Positions 26,476 to 62,429 of a DNA stretch of 64,000 nucleotides are shown here, piece by piece. How positions within the stretch are numbered: the first letter of the stretch is position 1; each line of letters opens with the position of its first letter. The position numbers and the translations under genes are program-made. The DNA comes from Escherichia phage Bf23, in the sequence record OR083247.1. One strand, given 5' to 3'. The notes beneath the pieces were generated by a model, which worked only from the letters and a program-made list of their open reading frames with translations, was not told the DNA's origin and ran no database searches.

Positions 26476-29400
26476 TTAACTATTTTTCATAGTAGTCAAC
26501 AAGTGCTCTACTACAGTTTTCAAATCTTCCACATCTTTCTCAAGTTTATTAATACGTTCGGTTTTCTCCTCATCCCGTTGTGCTAATACTTTTATAGCAC
26601 ATAGCGCGTCTAGTAAAAGAACGTTATTATCTAGAACGATCCTTTCCTTCGTATCAGTATACCCTTGAACAACCCCATCATCATCAACAATGGGTTCCCC
26701 ACATGGTTCATATGTGTGCTTGACGTATGTAGGATCTATCTCCTCAATCTGTTGAGCAATGACCCCTCTGCGAGTACGTTTTTTCTCATCATCCTTAAAT
26801 ACAAAAGTAACAAGATCCATAGCCTTAATATTTTCTATGGAACGAATACCATCATATTCTTCTATGTTAGTCTTGTAGTTAATGTCAGATGTTCCACTTA
26901 ATGCAAGTGTACCCGCCGCTGTAGGAAAGTTAATGATCCATTGTCCAGTATTGTTAGCATTATTACGACGTGCTACATATAATGCACCATCGGGAGATAC
27001 TTCAAATAAGTTACGTGTACCAACTGTCGCATCACCTTTAGCAGTAGTAGTAATAGCAATGCCACTATATCTTGTAGTAGTTACATCTACAGAACCTTTA
27101 GACGTCCATCCCTGCTCAAACCTAGTATTTAGAGTAAAGTAAGAACTTACCCCCAATTTAAGCTCGTTCTGAGTACGACTATAGTTGAATAGTTCAGCTC
27201 CAGCAGTGCTATCTCTATTAAGTCTAAACCCACCACCATCTGCTACAAACATGTAAGTAGAGTTATCTGCGTCAGACTCCACAAATGATAGCGTTGGATT
27301 ACCAGACTTAAGAGTAAGCGGATTGGCAGCACTACATAGAATATCTCCAAGAAAAGTATTACTTCCTGTGAATCTATTATCCAGCTCTAGCATCGCAGCA
27401 CTTTTCCAAGGAACATCCGTTTTTGAGGTTGTAGGCTGATTAGTTGTTAGAAATCTGCTGTAGAGTCTTCCAGCACCATCAATCCAGCTCTGCATAATGC
27501 GGTTTTCAGCATAACTAGACTGAAAACCACCACCGTTGCTAGGTGCCCAGGAAGGGTCCCCCGCGTTATCACTGATGAAACCATCTCGTGCATCCGTAGG
27601 AATTTTAGGGGCTAATGTAGCAGTAATAAGTTTTAACCATTCACCTACAGTACCCCCTTCAATACTTCTAGCAAAGAATTTTGAGTTACGTCCGGCAAAT
27701 TGGGTTGCGTATGTGCCGCTAAATCCAACATGAAAACCACCATAAGTTATGCTGCTTTCAGGTGTGTTAAGATTCCCGGCAATAGCTTTAAATTTGTTTA
27801 CGCCGTCTGACTGCTGAGCGTTCCAGTCCTGGTCTGAATACGTTCCCAATCCGTTTGGTGGCTGTATAATTCCGTTTGCTTGTACAACCTGGTAAGAGTC
27901 ACCATACTTATTGCGGTATGTATCGCTGCAATAAAATCCTGTTGCACCCGATGTAAAATCAAGTAAATTTCCGTATATACCTAGACCACCGTCAATGCCG
28001 TCACTTGCATCTGAGATACCCCATTTATAAACAGGAGCATCACTTGCAGTTGCTGGCGACCAATCTGCTGTAGGAATGGTGATAGTAGATCCTACTGTTG
28101 CAGCAAGTCTAATTGGGAAAGCGTCACCGCGAACATAGATCGCGTTATGTGGATAGTATGCCTTGTCAGTACCACGCACGCAAAGTATAGCTACCTCACC
28201 AGAATCATAGCAATGGTAGTGCCCAAAAGCTCCCTGACCCATATCAGACCAACCAGCATCACGAATCCACATATGTATCATGTTACAGTTTGGCTCCTGT
28301 GATCCACTAAGAGATCGTGTACGCATTGATACTTCTACAAATGCATCGCCATTCCATCCTGCCGGATGACTAATAATTACTGGGTAATACTTTTTAGCTT
28401 CAGCTCCTGCGGGGGCATTATAGTCATACCAACGAGATAATCCAGTATTAGGAATTAATAGACTATCTTTTGTTTGTTGCAATTTTGCTTTGGGAACGGA
28501 TAGAAGAGCAGCCTGTACATTTGGTAAATCAATCTGGTCATTTTTATAGCTATAACCTATTACGTATTCACCATTATACCCGTCTCCATCTTTTTGTATA
28601 CGCCAGTTACCACCATCAAAAATGAAGTTGTAGTAAGGGGCATTAGCTGGGCGATCAGTTTCATTGAATTGGATCGTAGGATGCTGGCTTGTCAGAGTTA
28701 GTGGGTTACTTACATTAGATCTTAATTCAGCACTAGAACCAATAAATTTTCCATTAGTGGCTACGTTGCCATCTTCGTCCATTCCAAGATACTGATTTTT
28801 ATCGCCAGTTTGTAGATGCAAGGTAGCCCATCCGCGGTTATCTCCTCGAAATTCTGGGTATAAGCGAAGCCTCGTTCTTTGTGTACCGGCACCATTATTT
28901 AGAATGCACTGTAATATACCACCAGCCACCTGATTTGCATCGGAAGATCTTACAAGATTAAGAGCGTAGAATTGTGGAGTACTTGTCCAATCATATGACT
29001 GAAAAATCTTCCACTCGGTCCACTCCCAGCCAGTTGTCGAGGATTGCTTGATATATTGGCGCATATAGAACGAACCATTAATGGAGTTGTAAGGAAAGTA
29101 TAGCTGAGTACCTCCTTGCGGGCCATTAGCGTTATTCTGCATTACAAGAAGTGCACCAGCACTAGTTACAGGGAAGTGGTTCGCCGACGTAGCACCAGCA
29201 TTGGCACCTTGATGATAAAAACCTGCCCTAGTACCATCAAGCGTGTTAAGATCAGTACCATTAAGATCTGCTTTTTGGTCTCTCATTGCATTAAGATTGG
29301 TTAACGCAGAATTATAGTCACGTGCACCAGTACCACCCTGCTCTATTGCTAATGGCTTCCAATTTTGATCAGCTGGACTGTAATATCCCCATCTTCCACT

Positions 29401-30273
29401 AGCATCAAGCTGTAAATAACACCCTGTACTTTTATCGTCAGATGAAAATATAACTGTTCTTTCGCTGGAGCTATGACTGAATCTCGAAACCTCATCTTTA
29501 CGTGCATGACGTGTCCACTGTGGGCCTAGATTGCTTGCCCAACGATAGGTGTATAATGAGCGACTACTCCATCCCTGAAAAATACCAGTATAAGAAGGAG
29601 AGCCATCATTAATAGATATAAAACCTGTTAAGTAGGCTTCTCCCGATGCAATAGAAGGCCACCCAGGCACACCCTCACGAATACGCATAAAACCAATATA
29701 CGCAGAAGGATTACCGGAAATATCCGGGCAATCACGAACTGAATTACCAAGGCCTATAGAAGCTTTCATACCAGAAGCTACATTTTCAGCTTTAGTAGCA
29801 GATGCCGCCGCATTAGTTTCTGAGGTCTTAGCATTGGTTTCTGATGCTTTAGCAGCATTAGCACTGTTAGCAGCAGCAGTTTTACTATTATTAGCATTAG
29901 TTTCTGAAGTTTTAGCAGCCGTCTCACTAGCTTTTGCGTTAGTCTCAGAAGTCTTAGCAGCTTTAGCACTATTAGCAGAAGCAGTAGCAGAAGAAGCAGA
30001 CTGAGTTGCAGACTGCTGGGAAGATGCCGCAGAAATTTCTGCTTCATTCTCAGAATCTTTGGCATTTAGCTCTGACTGTTTTGCATTAATTTCAGATTGT
30101 TTAGCTGCTGCTGCAGAAGTCTTAGAGGATTCTATTGCAGTAGTTAGCTCACCAGCAGTGATAGAACTAATAGAATTAGAAAGCACAACTGTATACTTAG
30201 GATATTTACTTGCAGTTATACTATTCTGGTCCATAGTGACCATTTGCTGTAGAATTATTTTAGTTATAGCCAT
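26476..30273 (-). CDS. ltf: L-shaped tail fibre protein with C-terminal intramolecular-chaperone (peptidase S74-like) domain
   Basis: 1265 aa; low-complexity coiled N-terminal region; C-terminal ..SDINYKTNIEEYDG.. chaperone-type motif; position at the distal end of the tail module. Confidence 0.8.
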   Translation of the reverse strand: MAITKIILQQMVTMDQNSITASKYPKYTVVLSNSISSITAGELTTAIESSKTSAAAAKQSEINAKQSELNAKDSENEAEISAASSQQSATQSASSATASANSAKAAKTSETNAKASETAAKTSETNANNSKTAAANSANAAKASETNAKTSETNAAASATKAENVASGMKASIGLGNSVRDCPDISGNPSAYIGFMRIREGVPGWPSIASGEAYLTGFISINDGSPSYTGIFQGWSSRSLYTYRWASNLGPQWTRHARKDEVSRFSHSSSERTVIFSSDDKSTGCYLQLDASGRWGYYSPADQNWKPLAIEQGGTGARDYNSALTNLNAMRDQKADLNGTDLNTLDGTRAGFYHQGANAGATSANHFPVTSAGALLVMQNNANGPQGGTQLYFPYNSINGSFYMRQYIKQSSTTGWEWTEWKIFQSYDWTSTPQFYALNLVRSSDANQVAGGILQCILNNGAGTQRTRLRLYPEFRGDNRGWATLHLQTGDKNQYLGMDEDGNVATNGKFIGSSAELRSNVSNPLTLTSQHPTIQFNETDRPANAPYYNFIFDGGNWRIQKDGDGYNGEYVIGYSYKNDQIDLPNVQAALLSVPKAKLQQTKDSLLIPNTGLSRWYDYNAPAGAEAKKYYPVIISHPAGWNGDAFVEVSMRTRSLSGSQEPNCNMIHMWIRDAGWSDMGQGAFGHYHCYDSGEVAILCVRGTDKAYYPHNAIYVRGDAFPIRLAATVGSTITIPTADWSPATASDAPVYKWGISDASDGIDGGLGIYGNLLDFTSGATGFYCSDTYRNKYGDSYQVVQANGIIQPPNGLGTYSDQDWNAQQSDGVNKFKAIAGNLNTPESSITYGGFHVGFSGTYATQFAGRNSKFFARSIEGGTVGEWLKLITATLAPKIPTDARDGFISDNAGDPSWAPSNGGGFQSSYAENRIMQSWIDGAGRLYSRFLTTNQPTTSKTDVPWKSAAMLELDNRFTGSNTFLGDILCSAANPLTLKSGNPTLSFVESDADNSTYMFVADGGGFRLNRDSTAGAELFNYSRTQNELKLGVSSYFTLNTRFEQGWTSKGSVDVTTTRYSGIAITTTAKGDATVGTRNLFEVSPDGALYVARRNNANNTGQWIINFPTAAGTLALSGTSDINYKTNIEEYDGIRSIENIKAMDLVTFVFKDDEKKRTRRGVIAQQIEEIDPTYVKHTYEPCGEPIVDDDGVVQGYTDTKERIVLDNNVLLLDALCAIKVLAQRDEEKTERINKLEKDVEDLKTVVEHLLTTMKNS

Positions 30274-47660: not shown

Positions 47661-48874
47661 TCTTTATCTCCCTCGGTGGAACCTTGAGGTCTACCACCTT
47701 CTTGACCAGATACACCTGTTGCAGAACCAGCAACGTTAGCAGGAATACGAATCCTATCCATCTGCTCATCATCTAAAGGTTCAAGGTTCAGCTCTAAACG
47801 AGCTTCGTTACCAGTCATAATACCATTATTAACCAATGAGGTTAAATGTTTAGCCTCAGCTTCTTTATCTGGTGTTAATGCAGCTACCTCCTTAGTATTA
47901 GGGGTAATCTTATAACCAAAAAAGAAAGTAAGAGAACTAGTCAGTTTGTTCAGCATAGGAATGATAGTCATATAATAGAACAATTCGATGTTTGGTCGAA
48001 TATTCGCATTATTACCACCATCAAGCAGTACTTGCGGAACTCCAAAGGCTAGACAAATAGATTTATTAAATCCTTCGATGTCTTCCTTAAAGTCTAGATC
48101 TTTAAAAGAGGATATTTGGGAGTACGGTTTAGCTTTCATACCACCATCTAGAATCAGGACAGAAGACTGACCCGTACTAGGATTATAATCGAGTTGTAAT
48201 TCTTCTTGTTTACGCTCACGCAATTTCTTGTTCAGGATTTCATCCGTTTCAAGAATAAGACCAATCACGGTTCCGTTATCGAGGAATTTCTCTTTAAAGT
48301 TAAGCATTTTAGAACGCTTTTCAAGGGAATCAATAACAGTAGCAACACGAGATTGTCCAGAAATTTGAGAGTTTGTGCCACACACGTAACTGTTATCCTT
48401 TATAAAGATAATCTCATCTACGCGATAGTTTATCTGATTATTAAATATAAATTTTTTGATAAACTTATTGGCATCTGCCTCGACCTGCATAAGAGCAGCC
48501 GGGACATGGTAAAGCGATGTGCCATCCCAATAGATGTATGCACAACCTTCAAAAAGTAGGTCAGTGACTACAAGTCTACGGAATGTGCTTATATCCATGA
48601 ATGGATTAGGTCGTACATTTAAGAGAGTGTCTAGAGTCTTTGTCTTGACGCCATTGGCATACGTGACAATATTATATTTATCTCCGACAGTATAAGAACA
48701 CTCCGCCGCACTATCTATAACCATATTAGCAGTTCGATTGAGAATCTCAATCTTGCTATAGGCTTGTCCAGTGGTAAAAGGCTTACGGTTAGTGCGATGA
48801 CTAACTGGTTCCATGTCTCTTATAATACGTTGACCCGGATTTAGCTTTTCAGTAATCCAGCTTTTAAAACCCAT
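47657..48874 (-). CDS. Portal protein, T5 pb7-like (405 aa)
   Basis: Size and position between the terminase-side genes and the head genes. Confidence 0.7.
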   Translation of the reverse strand: MGFKSWITEKLNPGQRIIRDMEPVSHRTNRKPFTTGQAYSKIEILNRTANMVIDSAAECSYTVGDKYNIVTYANGVKTKTLDTLLNVRPNPFMDISTFRRLVVTDLLFEGCAYIYWDGTSLYHVPAALMQVEADANKFIKKFIFNNQINYRVDEIIFIKDNSYVCGTNSQISGQSRVATVIDSLEKRSKMLNFKEKFLDNGTVIGLILETDEILNKKLRERKQEELQLDYNPSTGQSSVLILDGGMKAKPYSQISSFKDLDFKEDIEGFNKSICLAFGVPQVLLDGGNNANIRPNIELFYYMTIIPMLNKLTSSLTFFFGYKITPNTKEVAALTPDKEAEAKHLTSLVNNGIMTGNEARLELNLEPLDDEQMDRIRIPANVAGSATGVSGQEGGRPQGSTEGDKE

Positions 48875-49311
48875 TATAAGAACCTTGAGAATCCTGATTT
48901 TGTTTCAGTCTTGACTTGTGTCTTTTCTTGAGGATTCTGTATTTTGTCTTTCTGCTTTTGAACCCATGCTTTCTGTTTATTAGCAGAAAATAATGGAGGT
49001 TCTTTTGTGTAAACCTTATGTAGTAGTTGGTGATGGTGTACACAAAGGGTAACAGTGTCTTCTACTAGCTCATGCCTATATCGATCATAGAATGCCGTCC
49101 TATTTGAAAGGACTGTTTCTTCGTCAGTGAAATCCAATTGGAGTTCTTTAGCAAATTTTTTAACTAGTAGAGACACCGTATGGTAATGATGAAGCTCTAA
49201 TTCTTCAGCACAACCGCAGATAGCACATTGAGAGTCTTTTTTATATTGACTTTTTATTCCGTCTCTCATAAGGGATATAGCATCGCGTTTATATTTTATA
49301 TTGCTTGCCAT
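48874..49311 (-). CDS. HNH endonuclease-like protein (145 aa from ATG 49311 after RBS GAGGAG)
   Basis: CAICGC..ELHHYH..N..CVHHHQLLH fits the HNH zinc-finger nuclease pattern. Confidence 0.6.
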   Translation of the reverse strand: MASNIKYKRDAISLMRDGIKSQYKKDSQCAICGCAEELELHHYHTVSLLVKKFAKELQLDFTDEETVLSNRTAFYDRYRHELVEDTVTLCVHHHQLLHKVYTKEPPLFSANKQKAWVQKQKDKIQNPQEKTQVKTETKSGFSRFL

Positions 49312-49425
49312 AGTGTTCTCCTCAACTGTATGAATATAGTATACATAATCGTATCGAATTTGTAAAGGGGATTTTAAAATGCAGGAATGGGATACCAACT
49401 GAGTAGTATCCCATCCTATACTTAT

Positions 49426-50742
49426 TTATTTACCACGGGAAATAGAGTAAATTCCATAGCGGAGCGCATCACAAAGGTGAGAGTTAGCATCATGACGTGG
49501 TTTTTCACGCGATAATTTCTCTTCACCTTCTTGGAAGTCCCACTTATAGTTCTGCAATGCATGAATTAAGGAAGAACATGAGGCATCCACAATAATCTTA
49601 CCCTGCTGGAATAACGCTTGCAAACATGCTAGGCCATCTAGGACAGATTTTTTAGCTGGAGCTGATGCAATTTCGTGCTCGTAAGCTAAGTCCTGGCGGA
49701 ACTGAGCGGCGGCAGAGTCAACAAAAATACGATCAACTTTATAACGATCTATACAGTGCTGAATATAAGCAGCATGCTGAGCTGTAGTTTTCTCCGCCTG
49801 CTGGTATTCTTCTAGTACATAGTAGGTATCCGTATCGTAATGATATTTAATAGTAAGAACTGCTGTAGGATCACGATAACCAACGTCAATACCAAGCAAT
49901 GTTTCGAATGCTTCATCATCTTTAAAGAAGTGACGCATACCTTTGAGGTCTTTAACATGATCGATAGCATTAAAGGTATCAAAGATCTGACCTTCGAATA
50001 CAGAGAAGTCAGCCTCGTATTCCTGGCGGAAGTAGTTTTTACTAACTGTACGCCGTGCTTCCTCAATGTCATTCAGGTCAGCACGTGGGTTATCACGGTA
50101 TGTACCATGAATAGATACCCAGTTAGGTAACGTATCATCAAATCCGTAGGCGTAAAATTCTTTAAACCAGTTACCTCCACGAGGTGTGGAAATAAATAGA
50201 GCCTTAGAGTTAGGTTTATCTAGAGTAGGACGCAGCTGAACCCTGAAGGCATCACCACCCACATCGGAAATTGCCGCTTCGTCAAAGATGATAAAATCAT
50301 ATGAACGTCCAACTGCGGAGTCAGCCTGGGCCGCGGAAGCTAGTTTAAATAGAGAACCATTAGCTAACTCAATCTCTTTATCTTTAGCGTTCTCACGTTC
50401 TGTTTGCAACCCATACTTCTTAATAAGACCACGAATCTGAGACCATCCGATATTGGCCAGTGAGTAGTTCGGGGCAACTACTAGTACCTTCACATTAGGT
50501 TCCAGCAATTTTAGGAACCCAAGTGTATATGCTATAAAAGATTTACCTACACGGCGTGATACACACGCCGTTACAAAACGATGTCTAGGGTCTTCTAGGG
50601 CATTGATAATTGCTATTTGAGGGCCGTTAGGTGTAATACCCTCTTGTGCTAATATTCCAGAAACAGGTAGACGGAAGAAACGTTTGTCTATTCCGAAATC
50701 AATAACGTCTACTGTATTAACATAGGGTCTTGATACTTCCAT
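49426..50742 (-). CDS. Terminase large subunit
   Basis: Walker A-like ACVSRRVGKS, Walker B FIIFDEAA, C-terminal nuclease-like region; canonical position. Confidence 0.85.
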   Translation of the reverse strand: MEVSRPYVNTVDVIDFGIDKRFFRLPVSGILAQEGITPNGPQIAIINALEDPRHRFVTACVSRRVGKSFIAYTLGFLKLLEPNVKVLVVAPNYSLANIGWSQIRGLIKKYGLQTERENAKDKEIELANGSLFKLASAAQADSAVGRSYDFIIFDEAAISDVGGDAFRVQLRPTLDKPNSKALFISTPRGGNWFKEFYAYGFDDTLPNWVSIHGTYRDNPRADLNDIEEARRTVSKNYFRQEYEADFSVFEGQIFDTFNAIDHVKDLKGMRHFFKDDEAFETLLGIDVGYRDPTAVLTIKYHYDTDTYYVLEEYQQAEKTTAQHAAYIQHCIDRYKVDRIFVDSAAAQFRQDLAYEHEIASAPAKKSVLDGLACLQALFQQGKIIVDASCSSLIHALQNYKWDFQEGEEKLSREKPRHDANSHLCDALRYGIYSISRGK

Positions 50743-51224
50743 TACTTTTTACCTCCAGTAGCTAGGGAAGTAATTAAGTCCATGTAGTTTTGGTCCCCAG
50801 CTCCAGCAATAATGTTATTCTGAATATTGGTCTGATTAGCAGGAGCACGGACAGCAGCTTTAGCTTTTTCTAACTCCACCATCATTTTCATCTCTTCCAT
50901 CTTCATTTTGTGTGCTTTCCAGAGAATATCCATAATATCCTGGTCAGAACCCATGCCAGTTTCTTCTAGCTCCTCTAGTTTACGTTTAATAACTTCATCT
51001 AGAACACCAAACAAACGATCCCTATTACGGAATCCACTTTCCATAAAAATATCATTTAAGTAGTTCTTAACTTCACTACGATTCATAATATCTCGGAAAG
51101 CAATTTCGGACATTCCAAGACTCCGTGCGGCAGAAGGCACATCACTGCCGCACTGTAAATAAGCTTCAATCACATCCATCCCTTCAGGGGACATAAGATC
51201 TGGTACTAATACATCATTTGCCAT
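50742..51224 (-). CDS. Putative terminase small subunit / HTH DNA-binding protein (160 aa)
   Basis: HTH-like segment [19 protein letters not shown]; directly upstream of and overlapping the terminase large subunit gene. Confidence 0.5.
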
Positions 51225-51234
51225 ATTTCCTCCT

Positions 51235-53022
51235 TTAGGTAAGGCGTTGAATTGTTACTCTTAATCTAGGTAAGAAGACGGCGGCGGATTCATTTGCATG
51301 TATAACCACACCTAGCTCAGCATTACCATTACCCAGATTTTTAATAGTATAAATAAACCCACTTCTACGAAATGTTAAATCATCTGGTCGGCTAGCCCAC
51401 CGTTGTGTATAACTATAGGAAGCTGTAGTATGAAATGGCACCAAATGGTTAGGAGGTAGGGTTAATATTTGATGAAATATCCCATCACCTCCTGTATAAC
51501 TTTGCTGCCTTCTCCCCTGCACTTGCCATGCAGTGCCACCATATGTTCGTATAGGACCTCCTGCTGTATTAAGATTTCCAGCAACCACCTCAGTAGTTAG
51601 GATTACTGTAGAGTTTGCATTTGGTAGCCCAAGACTTACTGTGGATAAGGCTACATACTTATTACCTGTACCCGGGTAAGAAGGGTTTATATCATCGCCT
51701 ATGTAAGTACTGGCTACGTTATTTGGTAGTAATCGTAAAGGCACTGACGAAGGTCCCCAAACAACCCCGTGCTCATTACCTATAGTATTATTGTTGGAAT
51801 TAACGTACCATTGTTTACCGGCGGAGAACTTGTAAATACTTATCTGAGACTTAGAACCCCCATAATTTACGGGAGACCATAGAGACCCCTTATTAGACCC
51901 CACAATTTCGCATCTTGCTGTAGTATCTCCAAATACTCCAGTATAAGCAACGTTATTTCCAATATATTCCATATCAGGCCTATACCCTAAGTTACCAAAA
52001 GCATTCTGATTAATAAATTTGTAGCTAGTATTTGGAAGACTAACACCTTTTATAGTAAAGTTAGAGGGGCTTATACGAATATCGGATCCAGTAAATGGAT
52101 TACTAGCAACGCTCATACCACCATTAGAGTACCTAAGATTCAGCACATACCAGATAACTTTGGTTGGAGTAATATTATAACTATCCTGCACATACTGCTT
52201 CTTTGCTGCTTGTGATGCTAAGTTAGATGTTGAGCCTCTACATACATAAACCTTATCTGGGTAGGTTGAAGAGTTGTATAGTACACTAACATTACTTGGC
52301 GTAGTACCTTTTTTACCAGCGTATCCACGTATATTGGAGTTACAAACATAAAACCAAGTATGCCCCCTTTTCCCCGCCCCTATAGGAGCCTGCCAGTTAG
52401 GGTGCCAGAAGTCAACATTACCACTATTTATCGATACTTTAGATGCTCCGGCTGGAAATCCTGCTAAAGTCCACGCTCTGCCCATAGCTTCAGCAGCGTA
52501 CGCCCCTCCTGGTCCGTATAAGTTAAACCCAGAAGCCTGTGATATAGTACCACCAGTACCTTGTCTAGCTATTGACTCCTCATGGCCTAGACTAGAGCTA
52601 TACGTATAGGTACCATGTGCTAAACTATTACCAGATGCAAAAGCTGATGTAAGACCTACTTCAGCACCAGCCCTACCAATAGGGGGGTCTTCAAAAAATG
52701 CAAGAAATTGTCCAACTTGGGATTGAGTACCATTCAAAAAACCACGATGAGTACCATTAATTTCAACAGCGGTTAGTATAACTCTACCAGGATCATTGCT
52801 CTTTAGATTAGCTATTACAGAAGGCATTTGGCATACAAAGAACCCATTACCCGCGTTACTTAACGCACTCTCATATGTACTCTCGACTAGAACAAATGGC
52901 ATATCAGAATGAAATATAGTATTGGCGTTAGGAGTTTTGTGAGCATTAATATCCCCACCATTCACCTTGTTTAGTGATAATACAGTTTTACCATCACTAT
53001 ATTTTCCAGCGAAAAAACCCAT
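51235..53022 (-). CDS. Receptor-binding tail protein, T5 pb5-like (595 aa)
   Basis: First gene of the late strand, divergent from llp; N-terminus MGFFAGK..TIFHSDM resembles my recollection of pb5. Receptor specificity cannot be read from sequence. Confidence 0.6.
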
Positions 53023-53047
53023 ATAATCTCCTATTATAAAAATGTAT

Positions 53048-53095
53048 TTGCTTTTATCTCTCTATTTTGCTATAATAGACTCATAAATTAGAAAT
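53048..53095 (+). promoter_or_regulatory. sigma70 early promoter for llp
   Basis: TTGCTT (53048-53053), 17-bp spacer, TATAAT (53071-53076), leader TCATAAATTAGAAATGGAGAG. Confidence 0.65.
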
Positions 53096-53107
53096 GGAGA
53101 GATAAAT

Positions 53108-53374
53108 ATGAAAAAGTTTGTGATTGCACTAGTTGCCGCAGTTATGTTATCTGGTTGTGCACCTGCTCCCAAACCATTTTGTACGGGATTTGTAAAATCT
53201 TTTGGTGGTGCGGGAGAGGAACATTACGGTCTCAAGGTTCAGAAAGTTCGTATTAAGGGAGATCGCTTTCCAGTAGTACAGCTCCGTACTAAGTTTGGGT
53301 GGTGGGATCTCAGTCAGTTTGACCTTAAATACGGTGATTGTAAATTTAAACTAGAGCAATCTAATTACCTGTAA
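53108..53374 (+). CDS. llp: Lipoprotein, Llp-like superinfection-exclusion (receptor-blocking) protein
   Basis: Signal peptide with lipobox MLSGCAP; small size; divergent from the pb5-like gene. Confidence 0.7.
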   Translation: MKKFVIALVAAVMLSGCAPAPKPFCTGFVKSFGGAGEEHYGLKVQKVRIKGDRFPVVQLRTKFGWWDLSQFDLKYGDCKFKLEQSNYL

Positions 53375-53550
53375 TTAGTATAAAGCAAAAAGACATCCAA
53401 GTAAACTAAATTTTTTATTTCTTGGACGGTATACTGGCAGAAACCACTATATAAGAAAAGTAGAAGTCCTTCTAGGAGTTCACAGGCATGGTTGGTTGTG
53501 CACAAATTATAGACTATTTTAAATATCACAGTTATAGGAGCATGAAAGAT

Positions 53551-53679
53551 ATGTCAAACAAAAGAAAGAGCAGACGCGGAGAAGTGTATGATAGCTGGAT
53601 TAATAGTTTTGGACTTGGGACTATCCTATTCTTTATTTTCGTAGGTTTTTGGTTAGCAGCTATGGCGGGGTGGATTTAA
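53551..53679 (+). CDS. Small membrane protein (42 aa; start at ATG 53551 after RBS AGGAG)
   Basis: Basic N-terminus KRKSRRGE then hydrophobic helix GTILFFIFVGFWLAAMAGWI; first of four overlapping small ORFs. Confidence 0.4.
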   Translation: MSNKRKSRRGEVYDSWINSFGLGTILFFIFVGFWLAAMAGWI

Positions 53680-53786
53680 TGGAATGGGTAATTATTGCAT
53701 TGCTAGGGATTGTGATTATCGGGCAATGTATTTTAGATAATCACTTAGCTAGAATTGAAACTTTATTAACGGAGAAACGTAAATGA
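53679..53786 (+). CDS. Small membrane protein (35 aa; not in the ORF track)
   Basis: ATG overlaps the upstream stop (TAATG); MEWVIIALLGIVIIGQCIL.. hydrophobic helix. Confidence 0.35.
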   Translation: MEWVIIALLGIVIIGQCILDNHLARIETLLTEKRK

Positions 53787-53977
53787 TAGAAGTAGTAGCT
53801 ACACTAATAGTAATACTAGTCTGGGCAACTTTCATTGTTTCTTATAACGCGTATGTTCGCCTAAAAACTCTAGAAGCTCAAGTAAAACAACAACAATTTG
53901 CGCTAGAAAAATTAGTAGAACTGCAACGTTGTGATAGTACCCGCATTCTACAAATTGAGAGGGAATTAGATGTTTAG
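53783..53977 (+). CDS. Small membrane protein with coiled-coil tail (64 aa)
   Basis: ATGA overlap with the upstream ORF; N-terminal helix ATLIVILVWATFIV, then ..LKTLEAQVKQQQFALEKLVEL.. Confidence 0.45.
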   Translation: MIEVVATLIVILVWATFIVSYNAYVRLKTLEAQVKQQQFALEKLVELQRCDSTRILQIERELDV

Positions 53978-54215
53978 TATTATAGTTGCTTTTATTATCG
54001 GGATAATCGCGGGAGTTTTCGGAATGACTGCGGCTATTAACAAGCATCGTAAGTATACTGCGGAAGTATCGCGGGAGATTGCGGAGAGGGAGCGGAAGTT
54101 TGATGAGAAACGTGCGGAGTTTGAGCGGGAGTGGTCGGATGGATCTCGGGCGTCGCGGAAGAGATTTCGTGAGTTTAGACCTGAACATCGGTTTGATGAC
54201 CCTTCTATGCGCTAA
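53970..54215 (+). CDS. Small membrane protein with highly charged E/R/K-rich C-terminal helix (81 aa)
   Basis: 8-nt overlap with the upstream ORF; N-terminal helix IIVAFIIGIIAGVFGMTAAI, tail REIAERERKFDEKRAEFEREW; GAG/CGG-rich codons. Confidence 0.45.
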   Translation: MFSIIVAFIIGIIAGVFGMTAAINKHRKYTAEVSREIAERERKFDEKRAEFEREWSDGSRASRKRFREFRPEHRFDDPSMR

Positions 54216-54379
54216 TTAACTTTTTGCCAAATTTCATAAGATTACACATGAGGATGTGCTCACTGCCTCCGGCGAAAATACTTAGTCTGCTAACCGCCAC
54301 ACCCGTTATTATTACCATGCTAACTGTTTCACCCTGCAACCATTTTAATTGCAAGGTGAAACAATTTCAACCTTAATTA

Positions 54380-55114
54380 TTATGCGACTTTTAGTTTTTC
54401 AATATATTGTTGCGGGCTGCAACTATATTCTGCGCGTTCTTCCTCGGTCATACTTTCCCAACATAATTGCAAGCGATCGGCTAGGAACTGATAATCATTA
54501 TCATCGTCGAGCGATTCATCGATAAAGGTTTCACCTATCAATGTCACGCCGATTGATAGAATATCATTAATAGCTTGTGCGTCCAGCGTTTTAAACCCGT
54601 ATGATGCCGCCGCCGATAGCACGCCCTTATGATCATCAATCATCGTGAAATCAGCGTTTGGATATAGCTGTTTAAATAACTCAAAGTAATGGCTTTTATA
54701 TATAGCATCTTTACTGTGGTATATTTCGCTAACTTTATCAGCCTCAAAATATTTGTGTAGTGTGTCGCGGGAAAATACACGGATATTACTATCCCCACGC
54801 CCTCGCAGTCCTTGTTTGCGTAGGTAATAATAATCTGACTTACTCATCAGTCGAGCGGTACAAATAATGTTTAACGTGTTAACGTCATTCATACATTGGC
54901 GCATATATGTAACAAGCGGCAATAGTGTGTCCTGCATTATTAAATCATGTTTACATGCTTCATTCTTATATTTATTTAAATCTAAATTACCATCGTTATC
55001 AAAGCAAGGCGCTACGCGATGGAATGAGTTAACGATAGTGCCGTCCAGATCCCAGATCATGACGCGGGAAATATGCGGGAAATTACGGGTAATATTCGTT
55101 TTAACTTGATTCAT
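54380..55114 (-). CDS. dmp: 5'-deoxyribonucleotidase, HAD family, T5 Dmp-like (244 aa)
   Basis: HAD motif I in VMIWDLDGTIVNS; size and position among pre-early-type genes. Confidence 0.65.
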   Translation of the reverse strand: MNQVKTNITRNFPHISRVMIWDLDGTIVNSFHRVAPCFDNDGNLDLNKYKNEACKHDLIMQDTLLPLVTYMRQCMNDVNTLNIICTARLMSKSDYYYLRKQGLRGRGDSNIRVFSRDTLHKYFEADKVSEIYHSKDAIYKSHYFELFKQLYPNADFTMIDDHKGVLSAAASYGFKTLDAQAINDILSIGVTLIGETFIDESLDDDNDYQFLADRLQLCWESMTEEERAEYSCSPQQYIEKLKVA

Positions 55115-55188
55115 TTTGTTACGTTCTCCATTAAAGGGATTAAATTAAATTAATCCAGCCCACTGGATGGGCTGGGCTATTCCAGCTA

Positions 55189-55584
55189 TTAAAGACCATA
55201 AGCCAACGCATCAGCGATGACGGTAATATCTTCACCCGATACATCGGAACGGATGCCCGCGCATGTAAATACTTTTGCGCTCATTAGCTGATCATCAAGG
55301 CAAGCGGGACAAGGGGCAACTACTGCGAAAGCTAAACCTGATTTTACGGCATCGATGATAATCGTTTCTTGTTTCACCGTGTCAATATAAACGCCTTTCG
55401 CCTTGATGCGGCTGGATAACTTGCCCGTGGTATAGGCGAAAGTAGTGATCTGTAGCGCCTCGTTAAACTCGATTAAATCATCGACAACGTGACCGGCCTC
55501 AACGTGATACCGCTCACCATTAGAATAAACTAGGACGATAGAAGACTGAGCGCGATCGAATGGAATACGGTTAGAAATAGCCAT
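55189..55584 (-). CDS. Hypothetical protein (131 aa)
   Basis: ORF in the - strand pre-early chain; GC-richer codons. Confidence 0.5.
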   Translation of the reverse strand: MAISNRIPFDRAQSSIVLVYSNGERYHVEAGHVVDDLIEFNEALQITTFAYTTGKLSSRIKAKGVYIDTVKQETIIIDAVKSGLAFAVVAPCPACLDDQLMSAKVFTCAGIRSDVSGEDITVIADALAYGL

Positions 55585-55653
55585 GTTTATAACTCCAATT
55601 AATTTAATAAACTTTTATAGCGGCGGTATATTTCAACCGCCAACCTGATTTAT

Positions 55654-57318
55654 TTACGCAAAAAATTTACCATTCTTAAAGTCAATCAAGGTGCGCTGAC
55701 CGTTTGCATAGGTAATAACATGCGTTTGTGTCCAGCTTGACGCGCCAACGTTGTAACCCATGTCCAGACTACCAGACACGCCAGCGGTGTATACGCCGCC
55801 GTAAATACTGGCGGTATGAGTGTGCCCCGTGTTCAGTTTACCCAATTTCTTAAATTGCTTCGGATTGCCACGGCTCCCGTTAATGCCATTGTGACCGTGT
55901 ACGCCGCATTCAATGCCTGCAATCTTGAAAGATTGGTCAGTCGTTAGGAAAATGGCGTTAAACTCGCAACCTGCAACCTTGCGCAACGCATAATCTAGCA
56001 CGTTGAAAGTATCGTCTTTTTCTGCAATAGCTCCATAAATCGCGGCATTAAGGCGGTGATATAGTTCGGCGTTGGCTGGATCGTCTTTGATGTTAGCATT
56101 ACGATCATCCAGCCAACGGGATAGCGCCAGATCGTGGTTTGATTCTACGATGATCGTTTGAGAAAAATCGCGCTCCATTGATTCCAACACGCGACCGGTA
56201 TCGATAAGATCATCCAGAACTTTATCACGTCCGGCGGCGTATTGTTTTGCTAGGAATACACCCGAAGCGCGATTGTGATGGTTGCGTGATGTAAAATCAT
56301 GCACGTCATGGACAAATTGATATTTTGGTTTAAGAATATCAAGCAAGCTATTTTCGCCAGCCCATGACGCAGCGGCGCAATCATCATCCAGTTTTTCAGC
56401 GTGGACGTCGCCATATTGTAAACCTAAAACGTGCCCCGTTGTTTCATAGCATCCGGCGGGAGTAGCGCAAACATTCAGATCGTAAAAAACGCCGCTTTCG
56501 TCCATAGTTTCAAGCTGGCGCACAAAAAACTCACCGTCCTCGTCGAACTCGACAACAAGCGCACCGAAATTATGCAACGCTTCCGCTTTCTGTCCTGCTT
56601 TCTGCTGGATGTAGTTTTTTAGCGTTGCCGTGCCGGTTGAATACATACGGCGCACTACTTCACCTTTTAAAGCTGGGACGCTCTCGGCGGTGATTTTAGC
56701 CGCTCCAATTGCCAGACCTTCAAGGTTGAGCGCGGTTGCAGTTTCAGCAAATCCAGAAAGCGGATAATCTGCGGTAGGTAAAACGTTAATTTCAGCCATG
56801 AAAGCAAAGCGGCGATTATTCAAAAACACGTTTTTATTGCAGATATATTTGTCAAATGCGGAATCATATTTGATTCCTTCGGCGCCCTCGCCATTTTGAA
56901 AACCGTTTTTGTTATAAATAAACTTGCTAACCAGCAAATCAGCGCCGATATATTTAGCAAATTGCTCCAGTGAGGCTAAAAAGTTTTTATGCGGGAAAGT
57001 ATTATTCTGAATCGACGTAATAATAAAGCGTTTACCCTGCTTTACTTCCCAGCTTTCAACCGTGCTAGAAACAATCCCCGCCGCTTCTGGGCGCTCATCG
57101 TTTTTAATGGCTTTTGCTACTTTCGCCGCTTTCGGTTTAGCTGGTTTATTTGCTTCCAACCAATCACAAATCGCGGTCGAGTGTTTTGTAGTATCATAGA
57201 CCGCCTTTGATATATCGTCGCAGACTTCCAGTTTAGTGGCGCGCAGACGTTTACCATAGAAATTAAAGTCAGCGGCCATTTTCAGGATAACGGTTTGTTT
57301 TTCTGCGGAAATAATCAT
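55654..57318 (-). CDS. A1: Pre-early protein A1-like (554 aa), putative metallophosphoesterase-type nuclease
   Basis: Size close to that recalled for T5 A1; metallophosphatase-like His clusters (..GVHGHNGINGSRG.., ..GHTHTASIYGG..); neighbours dmp and A2-like genes. Confidence 0.65.
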   Translation of the reverse strand: MIISAEKQTVILKMAADFNFYGKRLRATKLEVCDDISKAVYDTTKHSTAICDWLEANKPAKPKAAKVAKAIKNDERPEAAGIVSSTVESWEVKQGKRFIITSIQNNTFPHKNFLASLEQFAKYIGADLLVSKFIYNKNGFQNGEGAEGIKYDSAFDKYICNKNVFLNNRRFAFMAEINVLPTADYPLSGFAETATALNLEGLAIGAAKITAESVPALKGEVVRRMYSTGTATLKNYIQQKAGQKAEALHNFGALVVEFDEDGEFFVRQLETMDESGVFYDLNVCATPAGCYETTGHVLGLQYGDVHAEKLDDDCAAASWAGENSLLDILKPKYQFVHDVHDFTSRNHHNRASGVFLAKQYAAGRDKVLDDLIDTGRVLESMERDFSQTIIVESNHDLALSRWLDDRNANIKDDPANAELYHRLNAAIYGAIAEKDDTFNVLDYALRKVAGCEFNAIFLTTDQSFKIAGIECGVHGHNGINGSRGNPKQFKKLGKLNTGHTHTASIYGGVYTAGVSGSLDMGYNVGASSWTQTHVITYANGQRTLIDFKNGKFFA

Positions 57319-57414
57319 AGTAATAAAGCTCCATTAAAGGGATTAAAAACGTTTGTTATTGGCAAATATTGCCAAATATAACGCCTTGAATAATAGGCGT
57401 TATAATTTGCAACA

Positions 57415-57612
57415 TTAATTTAAAGGCATAAGGCTAGAACTAACACCACAAGCAACGGCGGCAATAAAACAAATCAGACCTAAACGCTTTGCCAATTTAG
57501 ACTTACGCTTAAAATAATATGAATCTAAATCATTTTGAAAGTATGCAAATAATAATGAGGCCGCCATAATAAATAAGCCTAGAATTAACGATTCAGTGGG
57601 GTAAAAGATCAT
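57415..57612 (-). CDS. Small membrane protein (65 aa; start moved to ATG 57612 with RBS GGAG)
   Basis: Two hydrophobic helices; the upstream in-frame extension to 57660 would read through a perfect 20-bp palindrome. Confidence 0.4.
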   Translation of the reverse strand: MIFYPTESLILGLFIMAASLLFAYFQNDLDSYYFKRKSKLAKRLGLICFIAAVACGVSSSLMPLN

Positions 57613-57669
57613 TTTAATAACTCCAGTCAAAGGGAAATTATAGTGGGGAATATTCCCCACTAATTAAAT

Positions 57670-58086
57670 TTATTCACCTGCGGCTTGTTTTACTTCATCG
57701 GCAACGCCTAACAGTTGCGCCACGGCGTCCAGCGTTTCTAACTTTGCGCTTTCCAGACTTGCCAAATCGTCGGCGTCTTTGATAATGCCGGAATCAATAG
57801 CATGTTTAGCGATAACGCGTACATAATGAGCTTTGCGAATTGAACTACCGCCGCCAACTTTGCGCGGCTTATCGCTTTTCTGATACGCTTTCGCGCTGGT
57901 CAATTTTGAGCGAACAGACACGGGAGAAGCCGCGCCAACTGTTTTAGCAATCTCTTTCAGGCCGTCGCTGTTGGCGAACTCCAAGCCGTTTTCGTTGATC
58001 AACTGTTGATACATGGTAACAGCCTGTTGGGTGTTTTCTTCATTCCAAGCAAATTTTGCGGATTTTTCGGTTTTAACGTTAGCCAT
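57670..58086 (-). CDS. A2: Pre-early protein A2-like, putative DNA-binding protein (138 aa)
   Basis: Size and position relative to the A1-like gene; Lys/Ala-rich. Confidence 0.55.
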   Translation of the reverse strand: MANVKTEKSAKFAWNEENTQQAVTMYQQLINENGLEFANSDGLKEIAKTVGAASPVSVRSKLTSAKAYQKSDKPRKVGGGSSIRKAHYVRVIAKHAIDSGIIKDADDLASLESAKLETLDAVAQLLGVADEVKQAAGE

Positions 58087-58184
58087 GATTATAACTCCTA
58101 TTGAATTAATTTAAGGGATAAGATTAACATAATGTTAATCGTTATATACCCCAAACTACTGGGGTATATAAAGTTAACACTAAG

Positions 58185-58436
58185 TTATAAAACAGCTTCC
58201 CATTTTTCGTTGCGTTGAACAACCTTTACAACGTCGCCGGATTTAACGCGAACGCTAAAAACGGTTTTGCCGTTGTTACTACGTTCATTTTCAGCGTATA
58301 CCGCGTCGATTGTATCAAACGGCATAAGCGCCACACCTTTAATGCGTTCGGTTTTTCCGGTTAATTCGTCCGTTTTAGTAACGAAAGGAATAAAAACGGA
58401 TTGACCAATTTTAGGCGCGGTAATAACGTTTTTCAT
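58185..58436 (-). CDS. Hypothetical protein (83 aa)
   Basis: ORF with RBS AGGAG; leader contains a 10-bp-stem hairpin. Confidence 0.45.
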   Translation of the reverse strand: MKNVITAPKIGQSVFIPFVTKTDELTGKTERIKGVALMPFDTIDAVYAENERSNNGKTVFSVRVKSGDVVKVVQRNEKWEAVL

Positions 58437-58663
58437 AGTATAAACTCCTAGTTATTTGGGGATTGTTCCGCATTACCTGCTAGAAAGTAGCAGGTAATAA
58501 GAAAAAATCCGCTCGCCAATATAATCAATTTAAAGAACTCCACTCAGGCCGCTATATCCCAGTTAGGGGGCGGGACACATTATGGTAAGTGCCGACCGTC
58601 AAATTGTATCAAGTTATCGCTCTTATCGAACTGGGTACATCTTAAAGCCTATCGGCTAGGGTG

Positions 58664-58867
58664 TCAAACAATTTTTTGCAGTTTTTTATGATTTTCTTTC
58701 AGGTCAATCATAATATTTCGCCAGATCATTTCCAGACCTTGCTGGCGGCCTTTCTTGTACTGCGTGAATCTATATCTTACGGATTGTTGAGCTACTGTCA
58801 ACAATTTTTTAGTAGTAACATCTAATTTTTTAGCTGGTTTACCAGTGATCAAAAGCGTTTGTTTCAT
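58664..58867 (-). CDS. Small basic protein (67 aa) bracketed by 24-bp inverted repeats
   Basis: Lys/Arg/Gln-rich ORF with RBS AAGGA; inverted repeats at 58633-58654 and 58904-58927. Confidence 0.4.
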   Translation of the reverse strand: MKQTLLITGKPAKKLDVTTKKLLTVAQQSVRYRFTQYKKGRQQGLEMIWRNIMIDLKENHKKLQKIV

Positions 58868-59320
58868 ATCTGCGATTCCTTATATAATTGATAAGTTTAC
58901 CGCCGATAGACTTTAAGATGTACCCAATTTTTAAAGAGCGTGGCGGTAAACTTCCCGCCGTGTAGTTCGTCATTGCCGCCCTACGAGATAAATAATAGGG
59001 GATTCCCAAAAATGGCGCAACCTTATTTTTGTAAAGAAACGTAAAGAAAGCAAATACTCGCAAGGTGTCCGGCGATTGCCCAAGTTTAAAGGAAACGGGC
59101 GCACGAATACCATAAAACCCAGCAGGTTGGCAAGTAATTTTTTCATTTATATTTGCCTTACCCTACTTGACAAAATCTAAAAAGCTCGTGGTAGCGATAA
59201 ACGAGGGTAGGCAATGCAATGGCCTGGCTAAAACTTTCATCGCGTTCTAGGGCGTTTTAGGCGCATTCTAGCCTTGTTGATAACTTATCCCCAGAAGCAA
59301 AAATGAAATTTTCCTAGTTA

Positions 59321-59351
59321 TCCACTTGACTTTTATTTTCCAGTGGATAAC
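59321..59351. promoter_or_regulatory. Inverted pair of DnaA-box-like sequences
   Basis: AGTTATCCACT..AGTGGATAACT around a 14-bp AT-rich centre. Confidence 0.5.
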
Positions 59352-59494
59352 TACTTATTTTATGAAATAAATTAATTGACTTTTATTTGTTAGTATGCAT
59401 CGGAAAGATAGCAGACTAATAATTGCTAGGATGATAATCATGCTGGTGGATTGTAACGGCTTAAACTATCAGCGGACTATTAATCACGGAAAAT

Positions 59495-59545
59495 CTCGTT
59501 AGCTAACTAACTATTTCATGATGTATAATATACATATAAATTAAT
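59495..59545 (+). promoter_or_regulatory. Early-family sigma70 promoter facing the + strand cassette
   Basis: TATAAT (59524-59529) with the family leader ATATAAATTAATGAGAAATAA; -35 is weak (AGCTAA). Confidence 0.5.
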
Positions 59546-59633
59546 GAGAAATAATAATTATAATAAATAATAACTACAGTAAATAATAACTATAAGAAAC
59601 TATCGGCCTAAGTGAGAACCACTATCATTTAAG

Positions 59634-59741
59634 TTATCCACAAGTTTATTAACAGCACAAAATGATTTGACACGATAGGCGGCGATATAAAGACTTATCC
59701 ACAGACTTATCCACAGGTTATCCTACTGTATAAATATACAG
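59634..59741. promoter_or_regulatory. Cluster of three consensus DnaA boxes plus a LexA-box-like palindrome
   Basis: TTATCCACA at 59634-59642, 59695-59703 and 59707-59715; CTGTATAAATATACAG (CTGT-N8-ACAG) at 59726-59741. Confidence 0.6.
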
Positions 59742-60007
59742 GGTAAATGGGTAGTGTTAACAACTGCAATCAATTTTAAGCGGCCTAAAACGCTTTCTAA
59801 CGAGCTAAATGCGGTGGGGTAATATTAAAGTAAAGCCTTCACCCGTCGCCCTGGTGGCTTCGCCGTGTTTTGCTCTTTACTATACCGCTGCGCGGTTAAC
59901 ATAAAAATAAGCGTTAGGCAAGGAAAATAAAAAGGTAAAATAATATTTGCCCCTAGAAAGAAAATACCTTTATCATTCACTCACCGATTAACGAGGGAGG
60001 CCAACAA

Positions 60008-61000
60008 ATGAGGCTATATAAACCAGATAACGCAACCGTCTTAAAAGGTGCGCTGCGTAACCTGCTGGACGGTAGCAGAACAACCAGCATTAAACACTTT
60101 GTTAACAAGGCCGAAGATATTCACCAAAACTTTTTTGATGATTTCGATGCCTATGATATGAGTAGTTTTTTACAACTGTATAAGCAAGGGGCAACGCTTG
60201 TTTTGTATAATCGAGATAATCACCTGCTTACTAGTAGGGGGCCGGATACCGATTTCATAATTGTAAAAGGTAGCACAGTAAAAGCCTATGACACTGGAGC
60301 GGGCTTAGAAGTTTTTTCAATAGAAAACTATGAAGCCAACCCCAATGATCTTTATGACGTTGAAAACTTTCTTGATTCATTTTGGCGTTATTTATCCGTT
60401 GGCTGGAATCGGTCAATTGGTGACGGGTATCGTCTGGCGGCTGTAATGACCTTTGATGATGATGGCAATTTTTTGCTACCGTCGGAAGTATACCCATACG
60501 TATATGATGGGGATATAGAAAGCGCGGGCTTTTCTTTCTGGAAAGAGGGGAATCAGCCTATTGACAACACGGAAAAACATGCTGTAAATTCTAACACTCA
60601 AAGCGTTAATACTCAAATCACTGAAAACAAAGGAAAAAACACCATGACCAAGATCGCTAATATTGTTGCCGCTAATAAATCCGCTGTTGTAAACGCTGCA
60701 AAACTGGAAGCGGGTAAAATTGCACTGACTCAAATTACGAAAGTAGCGGCTAAAAAAGCGCCGTTCATGATCAAAGGCTATATTGATACGCCGATTGGTC
60801 GAGTAGTGATTGCCAACCTGCTTAGCGTAGCGGTTGACCAGTACGCCCCGAGTAACCAGAAAGCGAAAGCGGTAGCAGGGGCAGCTATGGAAGCGGCAAT
60901 GCTAGAAATGGTGCAAAGTTTTAACATCGCTGAGATGATCGATGAAATGGTAAAAGGTATCGATATTTCTACTTTCACCGTTAACAACGAAAGCGAGTAA
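60008..61000 (+). CDS. Hypothetical protein (330 aa)
   Basis: ORF with RBS GAGGGAGG; Ala/Lys-rich C-terminal half; no motif. Confidence 0.5.
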   Translation: MRLYKPDNATVLKGALRNLLDGSRTTSIKHFVNKAEDIHQNFFDDFDAYDMSSFLQLYKQGATLVLYNRDNHLLTSRGPDTDFIIVKGSTVKAYDTGAGLEVFSIENYEANPNDLYDVENFLDSFWRYLSVGWNRSIGDGYRLAAVMTFDDDGNFLLPSEVYPYVYDGDIESAGFSFWKEGNQPIDNTEKHAVNSNTQSVNTQITENKGKNTMTKIANIVAANKSAVVNAAKLEAGKIALTQITKVAAKKAPFMIKGYIDTPIGRVVIANLLSVAVDQYAPSNQKAKAVAGAAMEAAMLEMVQSFNIAEMIDEMVKGIDISTFTVNNESE

Positions 61001-61065
61001 TAATATTAAGCGGGGATTGTTACCCCGCTTTAATGTTCCCTTGTTAATTAATAGGAGGCTAATTA

Positions 61066-61560
61066 ATGGCTGAAGAAAAATATGGCTTCTCACTGGGAGA
61101 AGTGAGCACGGCAAAACATGATATGATCATTTTGGTCGATTGCCATACTGGCTATTGCGGAGAAGGTTGGACGGAGGAACATTTTGTTCCAGCTGGCTGT
61201 AATCTGGACGCTTTCGCTCAGGAAATGGCTATTGATAATGCTTCTCGTTTTGGTAGCGATGGTTACGAAGACGAAGAAACTGGCGAATGGTATGAAAATG
61301 AAAACGTATATGCAAGCCTTTATCATTATCAGCTAAGTAAATCCGGCACATATGTAAACGGCGGCGATCCTATTAATTCCGTCATGAAATTAATTATTAA
61401 ATATGGCGGAGTAGAGATAGTTGGTAACAAAGCGGTAATATACGCAAACCGATTAAAACAGCTTGTTTATATTCCTGATAGTACCCGATGGGATGAATAT
61501 GCTGTTTTGCATGACGAATTGAAACGATGTTTCAATATTGAAACCTTACAAGTAGTCTAA
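61066..61560 (+). CDS. Hypothetical acidic protein (164 aa)
   Basis: ORF with RBS AGGAGG; no motif. Confidence 0.5.
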   Translation: MAEEKYGFSLGEVSTAKHDMIILVDCHTGYCGEGWTEEHFVPAGCNLDAFAQEMAIDNASRFGSDGYEDEETGEWYENENVYASLYHYQLSKSGTYVNGGDPINSVMKLIIKYGGVEIVGNKAVIYANRLKQLVYIPDSTRWDEYAVLHDELKRCFNIETLQVV

Positions 61561-61664
61561 TGTAAAGTTTTGTAAAGGTCGCCTTTTATGGTGGCCTTTT
61601 TTGTTATAATGCTTTTACACCAAAACGGTGGATTGAAAATTTCCCAAAAATTTGGAGGCTTAAA

Positions 61665-61895
61665 ATGGTTGCATATTCTTCTTCTGACGCTCTTTTCACT
61701 GGAAAAGGCTGGGTATCAAATCGCTGGATCATTCATGAAATGGTGCAAGAATACGGCATTGCTAAAACTTACACTACCATCCAGGCGCTTTATGATAATG
61801 ATCAAATTGATCAGCAAACGGCTGGTTTTTTGCTGGATACCCTGAAAGCGGAGCACTGTACTAAAAAACAAGCCGCCAAAATTGTTTTAATGTAA
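61665..61895 (+). CDS. Hypothetical protein (76 aa)
   Basis: ORF with RBS GGAGG upstream. Confidence 0.4.
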   Translation: MVAYSSSDALFTGKGWVSNRWIIHEMVQEYGIAKTYTTIQALYDNDQIDQQTAGFLLDTLKAEHCTKKQAAKIVLM

Positions 61896-61941
61896 TTAAT
61901 AACGGGGCGTTACTTTCGCCCCGCTAACTAGGAGAATGAAA

Positions 61942-62091
61942 ATGGTTATTTTTCGAGCTATTCTAGCAGGTATCTTGGGCGCTATTTTATCCCTTTTTGC
62001 TATAGCTTTTGGCGTTCACGCGGTTACTATTGGTGCTGGCATTGCTGTATTTTCTTATCTGCTGGGCTGCATGACTAGTAAAGGAGAATAA
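61942..62091 (+). CDS. Small hydrophobic membrane peptide (49 aa; not in the ORF track)
   Basis: RBS AGGAGAA then ATG; MVIFRAILAGILGAILSLFAIAFGVHAVTIGAGIAVFSYLLGCM.. Confidence 0.35.
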   Translation: MVIFRAILAGILGAILSLFAIAFGVHAVTIGAGIAVFSYLLGCMTSKGE

Positions 62092-62093
62092 AA

Positions 62094-62427: not shown

Positions 62428-62429
62428 AA

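Follow-up and report, generated by a model that had tools for sequence, protein, structure and literature searches.

Does the divergent gene pair near the right terminal repeat of Escherichia phage Bf23 (record OR083247.1) represent a new host-range variant of the T5 family, and can the receptor that it serves be named? The window, i.e. the whole stretch of 64,000 nucleotides analyzed here, contains hrs, which encodes a 595-residue homologue of the T5 receptor-binding protein pb5, and, on the opposite strand, llp, which encodes an 88-residue receptor-blocking lipoprotein precursor (Table 1). A sequence-only reading had recognized this pair, had suspected a host-range variant and had held that the receptor could not be read from sequence. 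Comparison with published records leads us to identify the locus as the already characterized hrs-llp host-range module of BF23 (Tequintavirus BF23), and not as a new variant.

Megablast aligned window positions 51161-54285 without gaps to GenBank DQ097178, the BF23 hrs/llp sequence of Mondigler, Ayoub & Heller 2006, with 7 mismatches over 3125 nucleotides (99.8% identity). The promoter, the gene order and the small downstream open reading frames (ORFs) 1-4 are common to both sequences. Llp was identical to BF23 Llp AAZ03643 at 88 of 88 residues, and this exact sequence was found on 281 contigs under the name receptor-blocking protein. Hrs agreed with BF23 Hrs AAZ03642 (from DQ097178) at 592 of 595 residues (99.5%) and was an exact match to WLW40759.1, "receptor-binding protein [Escherichia phage Bf23]", the product of OR083247, which is the complete BF23 genome of 114,544 bp reported by Skutel et al. 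2023 (PMC10644984). Two other, independent BF23 fragments matched the window at 99.8% (D12824, tail proteins gp24/gp25) and 100% (X54455, genes 17/18); among annotated phage records, complete genomes came no closer to it than about 92% identity over 24 kb. With three BF23 sequences, DQ097178 included, matching at 99.8-100%, we rejected the notion that the DNA comes from a mere relative of BF23. The window is the right-hand 64 kb of BF23, and nothing that we found contradicted the assignment of the locus to hrs-llp. Alignment to pb5/Llp pairs of known specificity therefore gave essentially the BF23 proteins themselves (Hrs 99.5-100%, Llp 100%), which removes the novelty implied by the sequence-only reading.

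As a rule, sequence does not reveal the receptor, but the present case is an exception: since the proteins are the characterized ones of BF23, receptor specificity can be assigned, and the receptor is BtuB. BF23 adsorbs irreversibly to this vitamin B12 transporter (PMC10644984; BtuB also in PMC4728585), Hrs is its receptor-binding protein and a functional substitute for T5 pb5, and its Llp blocks the receptor post-infection (PMC10644984). PMC4728585, summarizing Mondigler 2006, gives a drop in efficiency of plating of over 6 orders of magnitude upon expression of BF23 llp; protection from BtuB-dependent phages, with none against T5, is reported for BF23 Llp as for the DT57C protein (Mondigler 2006, as cited). 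The Llp of phage DT57C, which differs from BF23 Llp by one residue, inhibited phages of the DT57C series by about two orders of magnitude and left T5 unaffected, and btuB mutants selected against an ltfA mutant of DT571/2 were resistant to BF23 too (PMC4728585). From this, Golomidova et al. 2016 concluded that BtuB, the receptor of the DT57C series, is a target of BF23-type Llp as well (PMC4728585). For the present sequence, BtuB binding by Hrs and BtuB blocking by Llp are thus functions taken from the literature on the BF23 proteins.

We regard hrs and llp as real genes rather than chance ORFs on the basis of their PHROG scores: Hrs matched PHROG 4815 ('receptor binding tail protein') over residues 1-595 with an E value of 4.6e-266, and Llp matched PHROG 1119 ('Cor') over its full length with an E value of 1.8e-26. 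Both ORFs, their lengths and their divergent orientation were as first described. The assignment to the T5-family host-range cassette was borne out by homology to pb5 (PDB chain 8b14_B, E value 2.8e-49; 8a8c_B likewise, about 3e-49; residues 1-200 and 281-595 of Hrs), by a gene order like that of T5 and by the functions annotated in the records. Homologues covering at least 80% of Hrs were present in 523 phage records (tblastn); Pfam and NCBIfam searches with Hrs gave no match, and a solved Hrs-BtuB structure was not found in the PDB. The gene is placed between terS and the divergent llp, near the right terminal repeat, which is the position expected of the pb5/Hrs family, and it heads a late-gene run that proceeds through terS and terL onward.

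Table 1. Positions of the hrs-llp module and related features in the window (a dot marks features without a strand).
Feature	Position	Strand	Description and basis
hrs	51235..53022	-	595-residue receptor-binding tail-tip protein, pb5 homologue, taken as BtuB-specific; ORF and homology
llp	53108..53374	+	88-residue receptor-blocking lipoprotein precursor; ORF and identity to BF23 Llp
hrs/llp intergenic spacer	53023..53107	.	85 bp; divergent genes on both sides
llp sigma-70 promoter	53048..53076	+	minus_35/minus_10 annotation of DQ097178 mapped onto the window
Shine-Dalgarno of llp	53096..53101	+	GGAGAG; read from sequence
Shine-Dalgarno of hrs	53028..53032	-	AGGAG, 5 nucleotides upstream of the hrs ATG; read from sequence
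Llp signal peptide	53108-53155	+	residues 1-16; lipobox
Mature Llp	53156-53371	+	72 residues from lipidated Cys17; lipobox
Differences from DQ097178	52491, 52506, 52515	-	three non-synonymous differences; Hrs residues 178, 173, 170
Exchanged host-range cassette versus T5	51275..53509	.	blastn of window 50000-55000 against T5 104000-113000
terS, terminase small subunit	50742..51224	-	10 nucleotides downstream of hrs, same strand; ORF and homologous records
ORF4	53970-54215	+	81 residues; small membrane protein downstream of llp
Ltf, L-shaped tail fibre	26476..30273	-	third host-range element; 1265 residues versus 1396 in T5

In what sense, then, is this a host-range variant? It is one relative to T5, with Hrs and Llp of the BtuB type and with exchanged cassette DNA. 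The FhuA-specific oad/llp module of T5 (PDB 8B14, 8A8C, 8A60, 7QJF) has the same order as the BF23 module, i.e. terS, the receptor-binding protein gene, a divergent llp and then the right terminal repeat, whereas the receptor is FhuA for T5 and BtuB for BF23. DNA identity to T5 of at least 90% ended at 51274, 40 nucleotides inside the 3′ end of hrs, and resumed at 53510, about 135 nucleotides past llp, so that the exchanged cassette measures about 2.2 kb. The promoter spacer was the only part of it with residual similarity to T5 DNA (70% over 53003-53118), the remainder being not alignable.

The T5 protein sizes assumed in the sequence-only reading were right for pb5 (640 residues; PDB 8b14_B and NC_005859 oad) and for the tail fibre Ltf; T5 Llp has 77 residues. 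Hrs and T5 pb5 share about 35% identity, residues 1-100 and the C-terminal half being best conserved. Hrs is shorter by 45 residues, with gaps opposite pb5 residues ~245-255, 268-280 and 562-573. The last of these lies just ahead of, and extends into the first residues of, loop L4 (residues 570-590), which in pb5 inserts into FhuA (PMC9586334). The tail fibres of the two phages were alike only at residues 1-159 (82% identity), the rest of BF23 Ltf showing no BLASTP similarity to T5 Ltf; the '82.5% identity' given for Ltf in PMC10644984 seems to refer to this N-terminal attachment part only. Residues 1129-1184 of BF23 Ltf form a Peptidase_S74 intramolecular chaperone domain.

The sequence-only reading had also proposed that the two genes diverge from a shared promoter region. 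This held for llp, whose promoter lies in the spacer and is made up of a -35 element TTGCTT (53048-53053), a 17-nucleotide spacer, the TG of an extended -10 (53068-53069) and a -10 element TATAAT (53071-53076). A relaxed consensus scan also recovered it; a stricter scan missed it because no more than 3 of the 6 positions of the -35 element conform to the consensus. The stricter scan reported no terminator. For hrs, the spacer offered only a weak match to the consensus, TCTCCA-17-TATTAT, running on the minus strand from 53100 to 53072, the candidate -10 of which shares positions with the plus-strand -10 of llp. The llp -10 lies inside the near-palindrome CTATAATAG (53070-53078), in which the plus strand gives TATAAT and the minus strand TATTAT. 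At the level of consensus matching, this one AT-rich element could serve as the -10 of both divergent genes. A perfect TATAAT on the minus strand (53038-53033) was considered as an hrs promoter and rejected: it directly abuts the hrs Shine-Dalgarno sequence, and its transcript would therefore lack that sequence. The T5 spacer likewise contains TTGCTT-N17-TATAAT upstream of T5 llp and is annotated with two overlapping divergent promoters. It is thus plausible that the BF23 spacer is a promoter region shared by both genes, demonstrated for llp only. The host-type promoter of llp fits early expression of this gene.

The deduced Llp has the features of a lipoprotein. Its N-terminus, MKKFVIALVAAVMLSG followed by CA, is typical of lipoprotein signal peptides in every respect; residues 14-17 form the lipobox L-S-G-C, and the region matched Pfam LPAM_1 (E value 5e-5; 23.9 bits versus a cut-off of 20). 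The Pfam and NCBIfam matches of Llp were confined to this signal-peptide motif. Residue +2 is Ala and not Asp, which predicts sorting to the outer membrane. In an alignment of 12 BF23-type Llp sequences, Cys17, Cys25 and Cys78 were invariant, the latter two corresponding to positions 9 and 62 of the mature protein. An AlphaFold2 model (predicted local distance difference test score 83) showed a small five-stranded beta-barrel with a short C-terminal helix.

Taken as a whole, the observations are almost certainly best explained by the BF23 hrs-llp module, with Hrs binding BtuB and Llp blocking it. In this scheme, Hrs at the tip of the straight tail fibre would bind the TonB-dependent transporter BtuB irreversibly and thereby lead to tail opening and DNA ejection. 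llp, read divergently from hrs, would have a strong extended -10 promoter of the host type, which would make early expression possible. Its precursor would lose the signal peptide and receive the lipid at Cys17; Ala at +2 would direct the protein to the outer membrane, where it would sit in the inner leaflet, and a Cys25-Cys78 disulfide would probably stabilize it. Llp would then inactivate BtuB as a phage receptor, so that BtuB-dependent superinfection is excluded and the progeny are spared adsorption to cell debris. By analogy with the crystal structure of T5 Llp bound to FhuA (PMC9586334), Llp may bind the periplasmic face or the plug of BtuB and close the extracellular loops allosterically.

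Some observations weigh against parts of this scheme, the mode of action of Llp being the less certain part. Close to the presumed receptor-contact loop, three residues of the window's Hrs are not those of the BF23 Hrs published first. As for the mode of action of Llp, hhalign of the mature parts of BF23 and T5 Llp gave a P of 0.18 over 9 columns, a profile of the mature domain searched against 1.84 billion representatives returned its own cluster only, and a Foldseek search of the PDB with the Llp model found no match. Since no similarity between the mature domains was detectable, jamming of the BtuB plug from the periplasm is proposed by analogy with T5 Llp and not on the ground of homology.

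Are BF23 Llp and T5 Llp related at all? They have been called non-homologous (PMC10644984, PMC4728585), and the mature proteins, of 72 and 62 residues, respectively, show no significant sequence similarity. A full-length BLASTP comparison gave an E value of 1e-4, mostly from the signal peptide, and phmmer searches of PDB sequences with BF23 Llp returned no Llp. Yet both are small outer-membrane lipoproteins with a pair of cysteines, one soon after the lipidated Cys and the other near the C terminus, which in T5 Llp form the disulfide Cys11-Cys58 (PMC9586334). RefSeq uses the name 'Cor superinfection exclusion protein' for both types, and T5 Llp, like BF23 Llp, matched PHROG 1119 over its full length (E value 1.1e-19), although PHROG is a remote-homology clustering and PHROG 1119 may be no more than a cluster that happens to hold both. 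Grouped with them in PHROG 1119 are the Cor lipoproteins of T1/phi80-like phages. These, too, are small phage lipoproteins of the outer membrane and prevent superinfection through inactivation of a TonB-dependent transporter, though their target is FhuA and not BtuB; those of Drexlerviridae were only 28-34% identical to BF23 Llp (E value about 2e-3). BF23 and T5 Llp may share the same kind of fold, and they probably have a common mode of action; they may also share a very remote ancestry. We consider it possible, at somewhat less than an even chance and contrary to the repeated description of the two as non-homologous, that BF23 Llp and T5 Llp/Cor are highly diverged members of one superfamily of small beta-barrel lipoproteins, retargeted from FhuA to BtuB, and that BF23 Llp jams the BtuB plug from the periplasm. 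A recent paper on a T1-like phage (2026; PMC13164509) has suggested that the Cor/Llp mechanism extends to BtuB.

We considered the possibility that Llp blocks BtuB in a way unlike that of T5 Llp, namely by masking the extracellular face or by disturbing the insertion or abundance of BtuB, instead of binding to the periplasmic side of the plug with reverse allostery. The dissimilarity of the mature domains, the failure of Foldseek to find a match and the description of the two proteins as non-homologous in both of the papers cited above speak for such a difference, as does an early in vitro study that, as cited in PMC9586334, put T5 Llp outside the cell. We find this alternative improbable.

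We also asked whether the three substitutions in Hrs might create a new receptor specificity. Residues 170, 173 and 178 are G, G and E in the window versus R, R and K in DQ097178; all three differences fall within 9 codons (25 nucleotides), and each, going from the window to DQ097178, replaces G by A in the coding strand. F166 of Hrs is aligned with Phe170 of T5 pb5, the tip of the FhuA-contacting loop L2 (PMC9586334); the three residues follow F166 at a distance of 4-12 positions and are therefore just past the presumed L2-equivalent loop. With this location, G170, or G173/E178, could in principle change the receptor or the BtuB allele that is recognized in comparison with the classical Hrs. 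In the close relatives examined (n = 4), the three residues are R, G and E. G170, absent from all four, is therefore private to the stock from which the window derives, which favours the idea of a new variant; G173 and E178 of the window are also the residues of every relative, so that R173 and K178 are private to DQ097178 or are errors. Furthermore, the exact protein of the window is that of the BF23 stock (WLW40759.1), which was treated as BtuB-dependent in PMC10644984, and overall identity to the classical Hrs is as high as 99.5%.

ORF4 is another place where the older record is evidently at fault, here at the 3′ end of the frame. The ORF4 protein has 81 residues in the window, which is the length of T5.162, and 76 in DQ097178, where it is shortened because three nucleotides differ at its stop codon (54197, 54198 and 54200). 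The probable source of the discrepancy is a faulty 3′ end of DQ097178, which suggests that part of the differences are errors in that sequence. On these grounds a changed receptor specificity is highly unlikely, and we retain the assignment to the BtuB-dependent BF23 module. It might still be that G170/G173/E178 reflect adaptation of BtuB binding in a laboratory stock rather than sequencing noise. Given the differences found, PMC10644984 is slightly inexact in stating that DQ097178 'perfectly aligns' with the genome.

That Llp is a generic Cor protein blocking FhuA, as its orthologues' RefSeq name and its match to PHROG 1119 might lead one to think, is scarcely credible: the NCBIfam Cor equivalog NF047972, with a cut-off of 31 bits, scored 15.8 and matched residues 1-35 (the signal-peptide region) only, the Llp of DT57C left the FhuA-using T5 unaffected, and llp was always paired with BF23-type receptor-binding proteins in more than 400 phage records.

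Other BtuB-dependent T5-like phages carry the same module. DT57C/DT571-2, EPS7, SPC35, phiR2-01, NBSal005 and BASEL isolates have the same Llp as BF23 and a receptor-binding protein of the same family, which is only 65-98% identical to BF23 Hrs, and BtuB dependence has been shown for DT57C and phiR2-01 (PMC4728585, PMC8624392). In about 180 phage records Llp was 95-100% identical to that of BF23 (100% in 75 of them), whereas the adjacent receptor-binding proteins in the same set were 65-99% identical to BF23 Hrs. A near-invariant Llp next to a variable receptor-binding protein means that recombination between hrs and llp is frequent and that Llp is constrained by the common target, BtuB. A mosaic with a recombination point between the two genes has already been described for DT57C by Golomidova et al. 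2016 (PMC4728585).

Two observations concern the surroundings of the module. The start of the right terminal repeat, as annotated in DQ097178, maps to position 54256 of the window, and the published repeat length of 9743 bp, added to this position, reaches the window end. The last ~9.7 kb (54256-64000) are therefore the right-hand copy of the pre-early first-step-transfer region; within them are dmp at 54380-55114 and A1 at 55654-57318. On the other side, between the portal and large terminase genes, an ORF of 174 residues (48874-49398, minus strand) contains the Cys/His motifs CAICGC...HHYH...CVHHHQLLH, which resemble those of an HNH-type homing endonuclease; it had no Pfam match at E ≤ 0.01. 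The corresponding site of T5 is occupied by two other ORFs, T5.153 and T5.154 'endonuclease'.

The locus was sequenced and functionally characterized between 1996 and 2006, publication of the complete genome followed in 2023, and its discovery value is small. BF23 Hrs/Llp is nevertheless the prototype of BtuB-specific host-range cassettes among the T5-like phages, a group with many members in development against Salmonella and E. coli, and the boundaries of the cassette with respect to T5 show the unit that can be swapped. The idea that the plug of TonB-dependent transporters is jammed has already been proposed by Van den Berg et al. 2022 and in the 2026 paper on a T1-like phage (PMC13164509). 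If confirmed, the likeness of the two types of Llp at the level of the fold would support such plug-jamming by a periplasmic lipoprotein as a general way of inactivating TonB-dependent transporters.

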